DNA of 64,000 bases, from assembly GCA_947085185.1 (NCBI GenBank), contig CAMTVK010000005.1, forward strand, positions 32,001-96,000, read 5' to 3'. The notes beneath the pieces are model-generated. The model was not told the DNA's origin. It worked only from the letters and a program-made list of their open reading frames with translations, and searched no databases. Both the position numbers and the translations under genes were made by a program. Origin of the DNA: Candidatus Fraserbacteria bacterium. Its GTDB lineage: Bacteria; Bipolaricaulota; Bipolaricaulia; RBG-16-55-9; DRXL01. This document shows positions 20,697 through 29,374 of this stretch, piece by piece; within the stretch, counting starts at the first letter, position 1, and each line of letters starts with the position of its first letter.

Positions 20697-20862
20697 GGGG
20701 CTTGGTGTCTCTCGCAGAGGGAGAAGTCTCGAAGGCTTCTCTCACGGATGGGAGGGTTTTGCCTCTCTGGGGGCTGCCTGACCTCCTCCCCACCGAGAGG
20801 ATTTTTCCTTGCCAGCCGGCACTGCGCCAGGAACCAAGCCCCACCTTCCTTCTTCGGAGGGA
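20697..20862 (+). ncRNA. Putative structured non-coding RNA of unassigned family
   Basis: Closing stem GGGGCTTGGT/ACCAAGCCCC, nested stems with G-U pairs on + strand, terminal cUUCGg hairpin, upstream TACAAT (20658-20663). Confidence 0.5.
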
Positions 20863-20891
20863 TTGACGCTCGGGTCCCTATCCCCTACAAT
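20863..20891 (+). promoter_or_regulatory. sigma70 promoter of the downstream secreted-protein gene
   Basis: TTGACG-17 bp-TACAAT. Confidence 0.75.
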
Positions 20892-20915
20892 AGCTCTGAT
20901 GCAGAGGGGGGACTC

Positions 20916-21848
20916 ATGCGAAGAGTTCGAGCCTGCCCACGCTGGGGTGTGCTCCTCGGCTTGATGCTGATGGGTGTGCCCTGGCTTATCGGGACAGCTC
21001 AGGGCTGCTCGGTCCAGTCCTATGTCGACGGTCGTTGCTCCGCGGAGCTTGCTCTGTCAACACGGGTGAGAGAAGATCATCGTGTGACAGAATCTGGGGG
21101 AAGTTTGCTGATCGCTCTTGCGACGCTGCAGCGCGAGCCGGAGCACGCCTCTCAGATGCTCTCTTCTCCTCCGCCGTTGGTGGGCATCTCCTATCTGACT
21201 ATCCAGCGACTCATGCTGGCTCCGCCCGAAGAAAGATCCGTCGAGTCGCAGATGATCTGGGATTTCGGGCGCGTGGCGCAGCTGGAAGCGCGCCTGCGCA
21301 ACATAGACGCGATCATGCGCGCACTCCTTGAAGAATTCTTTCAATCTCACGGCTCTCTCTTGCAGAACCGCGAGCTGACGGTGCTCATCAACGTTGACGG
21401 CTTGGGGCTCTTCTTGCCTGCCCAAATTGAGAGCCTCAGCAGCTTCGCGCTCGACGAACGGCTCCATCTCTCCTTGAGTCGCGCGACCATCACCTTGCGC
21501 ATGGCCACCGGCTTTGGCAGCGTGATGGGCCAGATCGAACTCGATCCCAAAGACTTCGAGATCAGTAAAGAGAGAGTCGGGATTGAGCTGGCGCTCGGCT
21601 CGACTTCGCTGTCGGGGATCACGACGTTCGAGCAAGGGGTTGGCTTGATCAGCCAGGTGTATTCTATCAAAGCTCAAGTGGGGGACGTCGAGCTCGTGGG
21701 CCAGGCAGTGTTCACGTCCACCTCCCAAGAGTTCACGATCGGCATGAGCATCGCGGGGATAGCGCTCTCGGGGAGCTCGCTCATCACCCCCAGCAGCTTC
21801 ACGCAGAGCTTGCTCATTGAGATTCCCATCATGGTGAGAAAGAAATAG
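20916..21848 (+). CDS. Hypothetical secreted protein with beta-strand-rich C-terminus
   Basis: SD AGAGGGGG, signal peptide, alternating hydrophobic strands in C-terminal half. Confidence 0.6.
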   Translation: MRRVRACPRWGVLLGLMLMGVPWLIGTAQGCSVQSYVDGRCSAELALSTRVREDHRVTESGGSLLIALATLQREPEHASQMLSSPPPLVGISYLTIQRLMLAPPEERSVESQMIWDFGRVAQLEARLRNIDAIMRALLEEFFQSHGSLLQNRELTVLINVDGLGLFLPAQIESLSSFALDERLHLSLSRATITLRMATGFGSVMGQIELDPKDFEISKERVGIELALGSTSLSGITTFEQGVGLISQVYSIKAQVGDVELVGQAVFTSTSQEFTIGMSIAGIALSGSSLITPSSFTQSLLIEIPIMVRKK

Positions 21849-21851
21849 CTC

Positions 21852-22646
21852 TTAGCTGAGCCGACGCACCGCGGTCCAAAAGTCTGAGCTGATGCCAATG
21901 AGTTTTGTCGGCTGAGCAGACTTACGAATCTGCACGGTTTGGTTCAGGGTGAGCGTGCCCACGGGATCGCCGTCGGCGAGCAACGACGCCGGACGCTTGG
22001 CAACAGCCGTCAAGAGACTATCACTGGGCAGCACAAGCGGGCGCGCACCCAACCGATGCGGCGCCAACGGCACGACTAAAAGACACTCCATCGTCGGCTC
22101 GATGATCGGGCCCCCGGCGGAGAGCGCATACGCTGTCGCTCCCGTTGGTGTAGCAATAAGCACTCCATCGCCGGGGTAGCACCCGATGGCTTCTGCTCCC
22201 AAAAAAAGCTCGATCTCCGTGCGCCGGCTGATCTCGGTATGCACGAGCCCAATCTCATTGAGCGCTGTGCAGGGCGGCGCTTCCACCCCGACAGCTTCGA
22301 TCCTCATGCGCCTCTCAAGAGTAAAGTTATCTGTGAGCACTTGCTCGAGTGCTCTTTCGAGCTCATCTATCCCGACCGATGTCAGAAATCCTAAGCTCCC
22401 CAAGTTGATCCCTATAATGGGCAGATCGAGCTCGGCGGCCGTTTTGGCTCCCTTGAGAAGAGTTCCGTCTCCGCCCAGCGTCACGACCAGATCACAATCT
22501 CTCTCTTCCACAGGACTCTTGTCAATGCCGGATCGTACTGCAATGGAGATGCTTTTCGCAGTCGTCCATTGTCTCAAACGTTCTAACGCAGCGTCGATCT
22601 GGGGCTTGGCGAAGTTCGCTATCACTAAGATCTTTCGCAGCTTCAT
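21852..22646 (-). CDS. nadK: NAD kinase
   Basis: LGGDGTLL, GINLGSLGFL, ALNE, GDGVLIATPTGATAYALSAGGP. Confidence 0.95.
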   Translation of the reverse strand: MKLRKILVIANFAKPQIDAALERLRQWTTAKSISIAVRSGIDKSPVEERDCDLVVTLGGDGTLLKGAKTAAELDLPIIGINLGSLGFLTSVGIDELERALEQVLTDNFTLERRMRIEAVGVEAPPCTALNEIGLVHTEISRRTEIELFLGAEAIGCYPGDGVLIATPTGATAYALSAGGPIIEPTMECLLVVPLAPHRLGARPLVLPSDSLLTAVAKRPASLLADGDPVGTLTLNQTVQIRKSAQPTKLIGISSDFWTAVRRLS

Positions 22647-23416
22647 ACGTACTGCCAGCGGCAGATCCAGCGCTCCAAGAGATCAATAATAATATAGAAC
22701 GCCAACCCCAACATGCCCATGGCTAAGATCCCCGCGAACATATGTTCATAGTTCCAATAGCGCGACCATTGGTCATAGATATAGCGCCAGAGCCCATAGC
22801 GCGACGCGAACGCTTCTGTTAAGGCTAGAGCCATGATGGCCATACCAATGGAGATTCTCAGTGCGGAGAACATGGCGGGGAGGCTCGCCGGCAGGATCAC
22901 GTGCTTATAGACATGCCATGTGCTCGCCCCGGCGCTCACTACCGAGAGCACGTAGCTCTTGGGAATATTTTTAGCTGCGTCTCGGGTGGACAACAGGAGC
23001 TGGAAGACCAGAACGAGCGTGATCAGCCCGATCTTGGGGGCATCGTAGATCCCCAAGAAGACGAAGAGCAACGGCAGAAAGACGACCTTCGGGATAGGAT
23101 ATGTCAAATAGATCGAAGGGCTCAGCAGACGATCTAAGACGCGTTCATGCCCGATGACCAATCCCAAGGGCACAGCGATGACTATCGCCAACAGCAACCC
23201 ACTGAGGACGCGGTAGCCACTGGCGAAGAAGTGCGGGACCAAGCTGTGCCACTCGATGATCAAGATACTGAGCGCTCGTATCGGTGGCGGCACGGCTCCT
23301 TGGAGCGGCTTGCCTGCAAACAACGTCGAGACGCACCAGCTCGCCAGCCACCACACCCCAAAGAAGAGCACGATCCCCAGCACATAGCCCACAAGATAAT
23401 GCTGAAGGCGCTTCAT
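22643..23416 (-). CDS. ABC importer permease (nitrate/sulfonate/taurine family)
   Basis: PIPKVVFLPL, EAA-like loop SAGASTWHVYKHVILPASLP; ATGA overlap with the ATPase gene. Confidence 0.9.
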   Translation of the reverse strand: MKRLQHYLVGYVLGIVLFFGVWWLASWCVSTLFAGKPLQGAVPPPIRALSILIIEWHSLVPHFFASGYRVLSGLLLAIVIAVPLGLVIGHERVLDRLLSPSIYLTYPIPKVVFLPLLFVFLGIYDAPKIGLITLVLVFQLLLSTRDAAKNIPKSYVLSVVSAGASTWHVYKHVILPASLPAMFSALRISIGMAIMALALTEAFASRYGLWRYIYDQWSRYWNYEHMFAGILAMGMLGLAFYIIIDLLERWICRWQYV

Positions 23417-24537
23417 GACAGCTCCCGTCGCAGCTCTAAGACTTTCACATAGAACGCTTCGCTGGTGCGCGATGTCCCCACGCACGGGTTCTCGAGAATC
23501 GCTTTGATGCGCGCCGGGCGCTCCGTGAGCACCACGATTCGAGACCCTAAAAAGACCGCTTCTTGGACGTCATGGGTGACGATAATCTGGGTGAAGCCGC
23601 GCTCTTTCCATAATTGAAAGAGCAGATCTTGGATGCGCTCGCGGTTGAACGCATCGAGCGCTGCTAACGGTTCGTCCATCAATAAGACTTTGGGGTGTGT
23701 GGCAAGGGCTCGTGCCAACGCGACGCGCTGGCGCTCCCCGCCCGAGAGCTGATGGGGATAGCGATCGTAGAATTTGCTGTCAAGCCCAAGCTCGTCAAGG
23801 ATGGGTTTGACACTCTGGACTTGCTGGAGGATCAGAGCGTTGGCCTCGCGGATCTGTCGCGGCATGGTGAAGAGATCATAGACGAGTCGGCTGATCAGTT
23901 CTGCAGTCAGCATAAGCACGATGACAAATAAGGCAACCTGGGGCCAGCCCCCGCCCCACAGCACCTCGCTCCAGGTGGCCTCCGCATTGACCGTGATGAT
24001 CTTGTGAACTTCGCTCCAGTAGAAGCCCCCCGCGATGAGATCCAACCCCAACGCCACAAGATAGACGGCAGCTGAAAAAGGGCGATCGAGGTAGAAGCGC
24101 TGACCCGCAGCCCACGCCCCCGTTACCAGTAGCCAAAAATATGCCCAAAAGAGCGATTTCTTGCGACGGCGCCACTCTTGCTTCAGCGACTCATCTTCAG
24201 GGAGCTCCAGCGCATCTCGCGGAGGCGGACCCCCAAGCTCAAGCAAGAGACTCGCATTCTTCCAGACGGTCTTCCACGGCAAGAGCCCCAAATCTTGAAA
24301 GATGAGCGCGACGTCGCGGCGCGGCCGCTCCACCAGTTGACCGTCTACGATCACGCGGCCTGCGCTCGGTTTCACCAGCCCACAGATCGCATAGAGCAAA
24401 CTGGTCTTGCCGCACCCTGACGGCCCCAGGATCGCGACGCTCTCCCCAGCTCTGATAGAGAGATGCAGATCGTCCACAACTGGGACAACACGGTGGCCAT
24501 CGCGATACTCTAACCGCAGCCCATCGATGCGGATCAT
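23413..24537 (-). CDS. ABC importer ATPase with inserted TM2-like membrane domain
   Basis: GPSGCGKT, FQDLGLLPW, LSGGERQR, LLMDEP, VTHD; ~138-aa hydrophobic insert between Q-loop and signature. Confidence 0.9.
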   Translation of the reverse strand: MIRIDGLRLEYRDGHRVVPVVDDLHLSIRAGESVAILGPSGCGKTSLLYAICGLVKPSAGRVIVDGQLVERPRRDVALIFQDLGLLPWKTVWKNASLLLELGGPPPRDALELPEDESLKQEWRRRKKSLFWAYFWLLVTGAWAAGQRFYLDRPFSAAVYLVALGLDLIAGGFYWSEVHKIITVNAEATWSEVLWGGGWPQVALFVIVLMLTAELISRLVYDLFTMPRQIREANALILQQVQSVKPILDELGLDSKFYDRYPHQLSGGERQRVALARALATHPKVLLMDEPLAALDAFNRERIQDLLFQLWKERGFTQIIVTHDVQEAVFLGSRIVVLTERPARIKAILENPCVGTSRTSEAFYVKVLELRRELS

Positions 24538-25608
24538 CTATCCGAGAAAGCGAAAGTCGGTCACCGCAGCGAACACGAGCTTTTCGCGAATGTAGCGCTT
24601 CTCCAGAGCCCAAGTGACATGGGCGTCGAACTCGTCGGCGCGGAGGGCTCGCGGCTGTGGGAAGTACGGCACACGCAGACGATCACGCCAGCCCTCAGGG
24701 AATTTGAGCTCTTGCCCGCGCAGCTCCGGGAAGCAGATGTTGACCCCGGCGCGAATGATCGTGTCAATGATAAAATCGCGCGAGCTGGCGTTGAGCGTGT
24801 TGACGGATTCTTTGAGGGCTTGGAAGAACTTGCGCACGCGCTCGCCGCGCTCTTGGAGCAGCTGACGCGAGAAGAGCACCACGCTCGGCGGGATGCGCAC
24901 CCCCTTATAATCCGAGAGCGTGATGATCTCGACGTTGTTTGCTTGGGCAACGACTTCAGTGAGCGTCGCGTGGGGTTCAGGCAAGATCGCCACTTGGACG
25001 CTGACTGTGCCCGCGCCGAGCATCTGTGCGATCAGCTGAATCTTGTCAAAGTCCTCTACGCCCGTGTAGTACTGATCGATATCGCGCGGTCTGACGCCCT
25101 TGGACTGCAAGAGCACATCCGTGAGATATTCCATATCGGAGGGTTGCACCAGCGTGATCTGGCGCTTCGGGCCGCTCTTGATGACGTCTTCTACAGAGCG
25201 ATAGCCGCTGAATTTGTGGGTGAGCATCGCCACGGTGCGCACGATTTGATTGCCGGTACGCGGGTCTGGGGTGGGCTCAAAGACCGTTCCGCTGATGGCT
25301 GCTGGGGCCTGGCGGCCCAGCAAGAGCACCGCGCTTGTTAAGTCTACCGCAAGCCCATCGAGCTGTCCTCCCAGAAATGCTGTATTGCGTTCGAGGGCGT
25401 TGCCGCCGCAGACCAGCTCTATAGTGACCCCGTGTTTGTTAAAAATCCCTTGCTCGAAGGCAAAAGCCAGTGGGACCGCGTCCTGGGCGGGCATCATGCT
25501 GAAACGGATGGGCTTGGTTTGCTGCGCCGGTGCCTTGCCTATGAAGAGACCAGCAAGTGCCATCCCGCTCGACACGAGAAAAGCTCTACGGCTCATCGGT
25601 CTTTTCAT
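24538..25608 (-). CDS. ABC substrate-binding protein (SsuA/THI5-like), Tat-exported
   Basis: SRRAFL twin-arginine signal; AFEQGIFNKHGVTIEL, GQLDG; first gene of ABC operon. Confidence 0.8.
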   Translation of the reverse strand: MKRPMSRRAFLVSSGMALAGLFIGKAPAQQTKPIRFSMMPAQDAVPLAFAFEQGIFNKHGVTIELVCGGNALERNTAFLGGQLDGLAVDLTSAVLLLGRQAPAAISGTVFEPTPDPRTGNQIVRTVAMLTHKFSGYRSVEDVIKSGPKRQITLVQPSDMEYLTDVLLQSKGVRPRDIDQYYTGVEDFDKIQLIAQMLGAGTVSVQVAILPEPHATLTEVVAQANNVEIITLSDYKGVRIPPSVVLFSRQLLQERGERVRKFFQALKESVNTLNASSRDFIIDTIIRAGVNICFPELRGQELKFPEGWRDRLRVPYFPQPRALRADEFDAHVTWALEKRYIREKLVFAAVTDFRFLG

Positions 25609-27702: not shown

Positions 27703-28266
27703 TCAGAAGCGTCGCTCCAAGAGCGTGAGCTTATATGTCAGCGCAAGCTCTTGGGGGATCGTCGCGCCGATGTTGTAGCCGAGCGTCGCTCCCAAGGCGG
27801 CCATCGTCACCGGGTTGACCACGAGCGAAAGATCTGTCGGCTCGATCACCCAATTGCCTGCGACCGCGGCTCCAAAGAGAGTCCCCACGATGCTTCCCGC
27901 AAAAGCGAGCAGCAGATTGCCCTGCACCCCTACGATCGCCCCTGCTAATGAGACTCCAAGAAACGTCGCCCCTGGAGGGATACCCAAATGAGGTCCAACG
28001 ATGAGAGAGATGAGCGAGGTTCCCAGCTGGCAGGCGCGTCGCTCTGGCTGGATCGGCGGGCACGGTTGCACTATCGAGAGCGTCCAATACGTGACGTAGA
28101 AGCCGAGCCCGGCCCCCACAAGAGCCCCCTGTACCCCAAAGAGAAATTCAAGAAAGATATAATCCGTCGGCTGCACCGGGCGCTCGGCGCGAGCCTCTGC
28201 TGAGATCGAAAACAGAGTGAGCGCAATCACAAGGACGCACGCGAGCGCTTTTTTAGAAGAGATCAT
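27703..28266 (-). CDS. Hypothetical membrane protein
   Basis: Signal peptide and Gly-rich hydrophobic helices; overlaps upstream gene. Confidence 0.6.
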   Translation of the reverse strand: MISSKKALACVLVIALTLFSISAEARAERPVQPTDYIFLEFLFGVQGALVGAGLGFYVTYWTLSIVQPCPPIQPERRACQLGTSLISLIVGPHLGIPPGATFLGVSLAGAIVGVQGNLLLAFAGSIVGTLFGAAVAGNWVIEPTDLSLVVNPVTMAALGATLGYNIGATIPQELALTYKLTLLERRF

Positions 28267-29374
28267 AGTTTGCTGTGATCGTCAAGCCCTGGGTCCATTC
28301 TTCAAAGTCGCTAGCGCGGGTAAATTCTAATTGTACAGCGAGGTTGAGATTGGCTTGCACTTGGAACGTCAGGAGCAGCTCGATATTTTGAATATCTAAG
28401 GAACTACGGTTTTTGATCTGGGTGCGCACGAAGTTATAAGACGCTTGAGCGTCGATGCTCTCGCTGATCCGGAACGAGTAGTTCGCCTGGGCGAGCAGCA
28501 CGTAGTCTGCTAACAGATCCAGCGACGAGCTGAAGCGCAAGCTGCTGCGAAACTGCGAGCGCGGCGCTGGGGCAAGCGCGTACTCAAACGACGTGAGCGT
28601 CAGCCAGTCGCGCGGTCCTCCTTGTGGGTCAAGTAATTCATAGCCCATTCCCAGGCGCAGCTCCCAGCCGCACAGCTTCTCGTCGGCTGTTTCGTTGAGA
28701 ATCTCTTCGATGCGCAGAAGTGCGATGGCCCCGAGTTGTCCCTGGGGGACAAACCCGCTCGACTCGATGATCTCCTCCAAGCGTTGTACTAGACTAGCAA
28801 GATCAAGAAATTCGAGACGGCGCCCGATAGTATCCGCGAGCTCAAAGAGCACAGCTGGGGGCAAGGGCGCGGAGAGCGCCTTCAGCGATACTAAGCGCTC
28901 TTGGATCTTGAGGGCTTTGGAGAGCGCCGTGACGTCTTTGAAGCGCCCGTACCCTAAGCCCGCGAGCGCGCGCACCCCAGGGCTGATGAGCGTCGTGGAC
29001 CCTTGGGCTTCTGCGCCGATGAACCCGAAGAAGTTCGTCTGCCCAAGATACGCCCGCAGGTTCATGGCGCCGTCGGCCTGATAGCTGAGCGTGTCTTTGG
29101 TTAAGTCGAGTTTGAGATGGGCTTGCTGAGAGAGCCCAAACGCGGGTGCATCGAGCAGGCGCGCAAAAGACGCCCTCAAGCTCCCGGAATTCACGTTCTC
29201 ACGATCGTCTTTGAACTGATCGTTATAATAGCGATAGTGCGCAGAAAGCTTGAGATCGCGGAACTCACTGCGTGGCGGCGTATACCCGCATAAGGGGCCC
29301 ACACGAGGTTGTCCAACGGCAGACCCGTTGCTGAAGAGAACAAAGACCGTCAGAACCCATACGAATTTTTTCAT
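28253..29374 (-). CDS. Putative outer-membrane beta-barrel-like protein
   Basis: Signal peptide, amphipathic strands, C-terminal GLTITANYDLF (beta-signal-like). Confidence 0.55.
   Translation of the reverse strand: MKKFVWVLTVFVLFSNGSAVGQPRVGPLCGYTPPRSEFRDLKLSAHYRYYNDQFKDDRENVNSGSLRASFARLLDAPAFGLSQQAHLKLDLTKDTLSYQADGAMNLRAYLGQTNFFGFIGAEAQGSTTLISPGVRALAGLGYGRFKDVTALSKALKIQERLVSLKALSAPLPPAVLFELADTIGRRLEFLDLASLVQRLEEIIESSGFVPQGQLGAIALLRIEEILNETADEKLCGWELRLGMGYELLDPQGGPRDWLTLTSFEYALAPAPRSQFRSSLRFSSSLDLLADYVLLAQANYSFRISESIDAQASYNFVRTQIKNRSSLDIQNIELLLTFQVQANLNLAVQLEFTRASDFEEWTQGLTITANYDLF

Follow-up and report, generated by a model that had tools for sequence, protein, structure and literature searches.

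The ATPase of an ABC importer in a Candidatus Fraserbacteria genome was found to carry, inside its nucleotide-binding domain (NBD), what sequence comparison identifies as a whole, diverged TM2-family protein. This domain insertion is real, ancient and under selection, and it is predicted to turn the importer ATPase into an integral membrane protein. The gene lies in a contig stretch of 64,000 nucleotides (the window, to which all positions refer), where a single open frame on the minus strand, from 24537 to 23413, encodes a 374-aa ATPase of the NitT/TauT type (NrtD/SsuB-like) split by the insert. The N-terminal NBD half (residues 1-101; 24235..24537) contains Walker A (residues 38-45; 24403-24426), the Q-loop with Q81 and the first helix of the helical subdomain. 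The C-terminal half (residues 241-374; 23413..23817) contains the signature LSGGE (residues 264-268; 23734-23748), Walker B with D288/E289, the D-loop and the H-loop with H322. Walker A, Q81, the signature, D288/E289 and H322 were invariant in an alignment of 27 homologues, which confirmed the intact Walker A/B, signature and H-loop reported by the first-pass annotation. A Pfam search matched ABC_tran (PF00005) in two separate stretches. The best NCBIfam matches were TauB, NrtCD, SaoA and SsuB. Since the equivalog scores were under the cut-off (TauB, 193 vs 357 bits; SsuB, 165 vs 395; NrtCD, 178 vs 292), the substrate is not readable from the names TauB, SsuB or NrtCD. Named homologues came from Ca. 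Bipolaricaulota/Acetothermia. In fold, motifs and operon partners, the ATPase resembles those of NrtD/CmpD and SsuB/TauB.

The operon, also on the minus strand, was as the first-pass annotation had described it, with the order binding protein, ATPase, permease and nadK and with stop and start codons that abut or overlap. It encodes an NMT1-like substrate-binding protein (24538..25608), a permease (BPD_transp_1, SsuC/TauC/NrtB-like; 22643..23416) whose start overlaps the ATPase stop, and NAD kinase (21852..22646). The system is a type I NitT/TauT importer, with both a binding protein and a BPD_transp_1 permease in the operon. Importers of this type have a soluble cytosolic NBD, whereas two membrane spans are predicted here. 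Tat export of the binding protein, as previously proposed, is likely: an SRRAFL motif is present and the genome encodes TatC, although the TIGR01409 score of 14.2 falls short of the cut-off of 16.7. The nadK gene follows the importer in 51 of the best 80 permease loci, with or without the insert. The link between importer and nadK predates the insert and is uninformative about it.

Several further features were recorded. In the permease, the conserved GLG motif reads GLW at residue 210; the same reading occurs in 12 of 13 metagenome loci, the 13th being incomplete. Among insert-less orthologous ATPases of the other families in the class, some (at L037, L040 and related loci) have a signature altered from LSGG to LSEG; at L037 and L040, the binding protein also seems to start without a twin-arginine motif. 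On the plus strand, a 366-aa open reading frame without a Pfam match (20748-21848) converges on nadK, and a related frame recurs at insert-bearing loci and a few sister loci. Two weakly Pfam-matching frames lie on the minus strand at 27703-29374, upstream of a fadB-like gene; one encodes a glycine-rich hydrophobic protein of 187 aa and the other a protein of 373 aa that matches DUF481 faintly and may be a beta-barrel.

Next, the limits of the insert were determined by comparison with orthologues. The distance from the Q-loop to the signature was 183 aa in the ATPase and 48 to 49 aa in four insert-less orthologues, which gives a net insert of about 134 aa inside the helical subdomain. It occupies residues 102-240 (24234-23818), almost exactly the limits of the in-frame insert of about 138 aa first noticed between the Q-loop region and LSGGE. 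Relative to the insert-less orthologues, the site is a loop of a few residues that links the first helix of the helical subdomain to the second. The insert consists of a Pro/Gly-rich linker of variable length (residues 102-117; 24187..24234; 26% identity within the genus) and a TM2-family membrane module (residues 118-240; 23818..24186) that is a whole, diverged protein of the stand-alone type.

An error of assembly was considered as the source of the insert and was ruled out. The strongest proof is that a profile of the insert, sought also in related genomes as had been suggested, matched this genome and 17/17 relatives of its family, in three genera. In each of two public sequencing runs, one assembled contig spanned both junctions with zero differences; the runs belong to one study, either may be the source sample, and the contigs are assembled sequence, not raw reads. 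In addition, all 13 confirmed metagenome loci have the insert within an intact NBD, with binding protein and permease adjoining. A recent foreign insertion was likewise ruled out: the GC content (0.59) and GC3 (0.70) of the insert are as in the flanking NBD halves, and the insert follows the family tree.

The TM2 identity of the insert is supported by a reverse profile search. A profile of nine inserts was run against 1.84 billion representatives and gave 35 matches, two of which were family members; the remaining 33 were PF05154 proteins, 32 of them over the cut-off. Both TM2-type motifs quoted in the first-pass annotation were found in the insert. The HMM scan that it had proposed showed the split of ABC_tran, but the TM2 match, at residues 126-165, was weak and under the gathering score (16 vs 27.9 bits). 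The best PF05154 score among the inserts of the relatives was 26.1 bits, and 9/9 aligned inserts matched PF05154 at an E value of ≤1, with 1.1e-4 as the best value. Because the insert stays under the Pfam cut-off, databases call the proteins of this family plain ATP-binding proteins. A profile of 15 stand-alone TM2 members scored the inserts at 62 to 72 bits, a partly circular result as these members had been found with the insert. The identity between the insert and a 149-aa stand-alone TM2 member was 29% over 116 aa, and a search of the ESM Atlas provided a lead to TM2 clusters at 0.80-0.81. The insert shares with stand-alone bacterial TM2 proteins and animal TM2D1-3 the motif order basic cluster, AY..L..G, RFYL, DLF..P.Q..N; the (D/H)RF motif, which in TM2 domains lies in the short loop between two membrane segments, appears in the inserts as QRFY or HRFY. 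Unlike stand-alone TM2 proteins (PF05154), it is internal to another domain, neither free nor terminally fused, and below the Pfam cut-off. The bacterial-type matches were mostly 85 to 160 aa long, and the long forms aligned across the entire module, from the basic cluster to DLF..P.Q..N, so the insert represents the in-frame capture of an entire small TM2 gene, preceded by a variable linker. No other ABC-TM2 fusion was present among the 35 representatives matched by the insert profile, or, in a weak search in which 7996 candidates were scored, among 45 matches to longer proteins. The latter comprised 43 family members, one kinase-TM2 protein and one DnaJ-TM2 protein. These last two (P0085 and P0086) are unrelated proteins in which TM2 is joined to a protein kinase domain and a DnaJ domain, respectively, and they show that TM2 is a mobile module.

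We then examined the distribution of the insert. The insert profile matched 0/166 other genomes of the phylum, many of which are incomplete, and every match in the genomes sat in an open frame of at least 355 aa. In orthologous operons of other families, the ATPase is a plain protein of about 250 aa. Among the best 80 permease loci, taken from species genomes, 13 ATPases had the insert (Q-loop to signature, 180 to 195 aa) and 62 did not (45 to 55 aa); 4 were not measurable by pattern, and 1 locus was without an ATPase. Insert-less orthologues occur in the rest of the phylum, in Firmicutes and in archaea. In a tree of a thinned sequence set with the insert columns removed, the 13 insert-bearing cores formed one branch among 38 insert-less ones with support of 96/89, and a larger quick tree of 132 rows gave the same grouping (SH-aLRT, 91). 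Judged from these phylogenies, the insert was gained once, in the ancestor of the family. No free TM2 gene that could have been the donor was found beside insert-less operons in 67 loci with flanks of up to 4 kb. Other TM2 genes in the order were limited to 2/4 genomes of another family, and none of these was matched by the insert profile at an E value of ≤0.001. The only TM2 domains over the cut-off in the order (G023:C8:4249-4395 and G026:C2:3548-3694; loci L143 and L144) lie in open frames of about 300 to 330 aa, in one genus of another family.

According to pairwise counts for 11 genes of the genus, which are approximate with dS above 1, the dN/dS of the module was 0.10 overall, compared with 0.087 for the N-terminal and 0.047 for the C-terminal NBD half. 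Within the module (boundaries below), the re-entrant part had a value of 0.065, one of the tightest constraints in the insert, while the first span had 0.080 and the outside loop 0.17. Identity within the genus was 85 to 89% in the re-entrant part and first span and 62% in the outside loop, whose length differs by 13 to 16 aa in the deepest members. These ratios indicate that the insert is under purifying selection. They bear on whether the module is a tolerated passenger, that is, a TM2 gene that fell into a permissive loop and was kept for an unrelated function or by drift. The PF05154 matches of the family (9/17 relatives) are the insert itself and no other TM2 gene was found there, so the fusion may be the sole TM2 copy of the family, a point in favor of such a history. 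However, the insert has been lost in none of 18/18 genomes in three genera, selection is strongly purifying, and a module helix is predicted to be continuous with the NBD. We therefore consider a passenger highly improbable.

To analyze the topology, we used an AlphaFold2 model built from 146 sequences, of which 42 had the insert, 21 were stand-alone TM2 proteins and 83 were insert-less. The model had a pLDDT of 90.2 and a pTM of 0.77; it was computed without a membrane, and our readings rest on its secondary structure and confidence. A first model from 27 sequences (pLDDT, 61) was set aside. When the model was superposed on CmpD, 245 residues matched at 1.7 A (Z, 31), which predicts an intact NBD; it also superposed on NrtC. 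A RecA-like fold with a helical subdomain, like that of NrtD/CmpD, thus appears to be kept. The fold-search matches covered the NBD and not the insert: about 130 residues of the ATPase match no solved NBD, and the search of solved structures with the insert gave only a chance-level match to PsaF (E, 0.22).

The model placed helices of the insert at residues 116-125, 129-142, 144-149, 153-183, 189-194 and 198-249. After a basic cluster come a short hydrophobic helix (129-142), a turn and a short RFYL helix (to 153), together read as a probable re-entrant loop (24079..24153). A predicted first full span (154-174; 24016..24078) would cross from inside to outside, followed by a net acidic loop (175-197; 23947..24015) predicted to be outside the cell, with W194, which is invariant in the 42 members. 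A predicted second span (198-216) then continues into the NBD as a 52-residue helix (198-249; 23791..23946). This helix is unbroken in the model, so that the last membrane helix runs into the NBD helix preceding the signature motif. The hydrophobic spans are retained in all members.

The number of crossings was inferred from several properties. Both ends of the insert must be cytoplasmic, which requires an even number of crossings; three full spans were ruled out on topology, as an odd count would put the NBD halves on opposite sides. Three hydrophobic segments do exist, in agreement with the roughly three helices of the first-pass annotation, but their mean Kyte-Doolittle values were 0.98, 1.67 and 2.10, and the first, at 14 residues, is short and only mildly hydrophobic, which makes it unlikely to be a full span. 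The counts of K/R were 4.9 and 2.0 flanking the short helix and 2.6 after the last span; the middle loop, in contrast, is net acidic. The distance between RFYL and DLF ranged from 22 to 73 aa across stand-alone TM2 proteins, which indicates a hairpin of free length. Because the first segment is short, mild and flanked by basic residues, the middle loop is acidic and the hairpin is variable in length, the topology is likely a re-entrant loop plus two membrane spans. The description of animal TM2D proteins differs, with two spans of which the first segment forms a full one (PMC8714088, consulted in part). Hydropathy, charge bias and the model all support, as a prediction, the membrane-tethered NBD proposed previously.

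The site of insertion suggests how such a module could act. In accepted ABC anatomy, the counterpart of the first helix of the helical subdomain is the F508 helix of CFTR, the one in contact with the coupling helix of the membrane domain; the insertion loop therefore lies beside the permease, near the bilayer. It is located just upstream of the structurally diverse region, which corresponds to CFTR 526-547 (PMC3521238, available part). The reading that we prefer, and to which we give an even chance, is that the TM2 insert is a predicted integral membrane module packing on the exterior of the permease as a built-in brace. In inward-facing NrtBCD, as described in the accessible part of PMC10945777, the two helical subdomains are apart from each other, and the permease helices TM1 and TM6 are exchanged between subunits. 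With this geometry, one module from each of the two ATPase subunits would sit at the edge of the permease dimer, adjoining the surface that holds the coupling helix; a conserved, rigidly joined hairpin at that place is most simply read as a brace. Such a module would fix the ATPase to the membrane in advance, keep it on the permease and follow the helical subdomain through the ATP cycle, and the last span and the NBD helix before the signature motif are predicted to form one rigid helix. The constraint on the module is as tight as that on the N-terminal NBD half, which would be more in line with a surface that contacts protein than with a simple anchor in lipid.

The permease offers evidence on both sides. 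The permeases of the insert-bearing family form one clade and have G210W in common, with W in 17/17 aligned and in 0/69 others. The substitution tracks the insert, in favor of a brace, but it is a single event on the branch of the insert and comparable fixed swaps occur in other clades, which weakens the argument. Against a brace, the permease, at 257 aa, is of normal length, with no helix lost for the insert to replace; a role of the insert as a substitute for lost permease helices was ruled out on the same ground. Insert-less orthologues work without the module, so it is not needed for basic transport, and its conservation could instead reflect the fold of TM2 itself or a ligand. In OpuA, a scaffold of extra membrane helices around the permease is needed for activity and was proposed to be static (PMC7673798, seen in part); that scaffold belongs to the permease, while the module here belongs to the ATPase, so it is a loose precedent for a brace.

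Alternatively, the module might only anchor the ATPase in the bilayer and raise its local concentration, with no specific contact to the permease. The hydrophobic spans kept in all members and the flexible, variable linker ahead of the module are in line with such a plain tether, and Bacillus subtilis TagH, an NBD subunit with its own membrane helix, sets a precedent (PMC11466899, in part). We nevertheless regard this as unlikely, because the conservation of 85 to 89% in the re-entrant part and first span goes beyond the needs of an anchor and the C-terminal joint is predicted to be rigid. The module could also be a sensor and gate, akin to the sensing or regulatory module that the first-pass annotation had named as an alternative, in which the outside loop or TM2 core would sense an external ligand, a partner protein or the membrane state and the helix would switch the ATPase on or off. 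The unbroken helix 198-249, which joins the outside loop to the helix preceding the signature motif, and the invariance of W194 both favor this idea, and OpuA offers a precedent, since its NBD contains an insert close to the membrane that senses ionic strength (PMC7673798, in the part available). However, by identity and dN/dS, no part of the module is under weaker constraint than the outside loop, which also differs in length among the deepest members, and the literature searched, partly as excerpts, yielded no ligand for any bacterial TM2 protein. A sensor is thus fairly unlikely in our assessment, and we return to the brace as the preferred reading.

Insertions between the Q-loop and the signature include the coiled coils of SMC/Rad50, the arm of ABC-F proteins, the chromodomain of eEF3 and the insert of UvrA, so the same general region takes whole domains. 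To our knowledge, those inserts are all soluble and occur in non-transport ATPases. The membrane helix of TagH is appended at the C terminus of the NBD. This arrangement, one membrane helix joined to a type V exporter NBD, differs from that found here, where the insert is internal, the partners are those of an importer, and a hairpin splits the helical subdomain; TagH also has an outside domain (PMC11466899, accessible text). Related importer NBDs have extra domains, where present, that are C-terminal and soluble (NrtC, MetN and ModC), and C-terminal regulatory domains of NBDs are among the nearest published cases (PMC10710835, in part). The NBDs of NrtD/CmpD and SsuB/TauB are cytosolic (PMC10945777, partial text), while the ATPase here is predicted to enter the membrane. 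Like the insert here, the helix-turn-helix of the OpuA NBD is confined to certain lineages, interrupts an importer NBD and touches the membrane, but it is short and cationic and stays out of the bilayer, which the insert here is predicted to enter (PMC7673798, excerpted). In a search of the literature, mainly of openly accessible papers and partly as excerpts, neither a TM2 domain nor a helical subdomain with membrane spans turned up in any ABC ATPase.

The importer likely takes up a small aromatic acid, and a naphthoate precursor of menaquinone is the leading, though tentative, candidate for its substrate. In the family, menA was over the cut-off in 13/18 genomes, while menD over the cut-off and MqnA/D were each found in 0/18, which makes it likely that the family salvages the naphthoate precursor. 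This genome has menA (G000:C14:20734-21486) and menG (G000:C6:88679-89353), with no menB over the cut-off. Orthologous importers adjoin ubiD- and ubiA-family genes in 5 of the best 80 loci, and representatives of these neighbors match menaquinone decarboxylase over the cut-off and resemble MqnP. The insert-less orthologues L079, L089, L105, L117 and L138 lie beside ubiD/mqnL- and ubiA/mqnP-type genes, in records labelled Clostridia, Bacillota, Firmicutes and Proteobacteria. The module itself might then serve in a hand-off, aiding bilayer entry of a lipophilic menaquinone precursor or recruiting the prenyltransferase MenA, in keeping with this gene content and these neighbors. However, the five ubiD/ubiA loci are without the insert and menA sits on another contig, so we judge a hand-off quite improbable, and the brace stays our favored role for the module.

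Importer ATPases are treated as soluble, whereas here the subdomain by which the ATPase grips the permease, and in which the signature motif lies, contains a built-in membrane protein. The range is narrow, one family of uncultured Bipolaricaulota bacteria, and within it the insert is kept in every genome searched; the NBD fold tolerates what are predicted to be membrane spans at that site. TM2 domains are widespread and in animals are tied to Notch signalling and Alzheimer's disease, with no molecular function known; even for animal TM2D proteins it is given as unknown (PMC8714088, partial text). It is possible, though we doubt it, that the ATPase is an integral membrane protein with a transmembrane signalling arm, in which a cue from outside or from the membrane, read by the TM2 module, would act through the rigid helix on the position of the signature motif. 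If true, ABC transporters could be gated in a new way, and a bacterial TM2 domain would have its first molecular role. The family also provides a clean test system for TM2, with close orthologues that have or lack the module and with transport or ATPase activity as a direct read-out.
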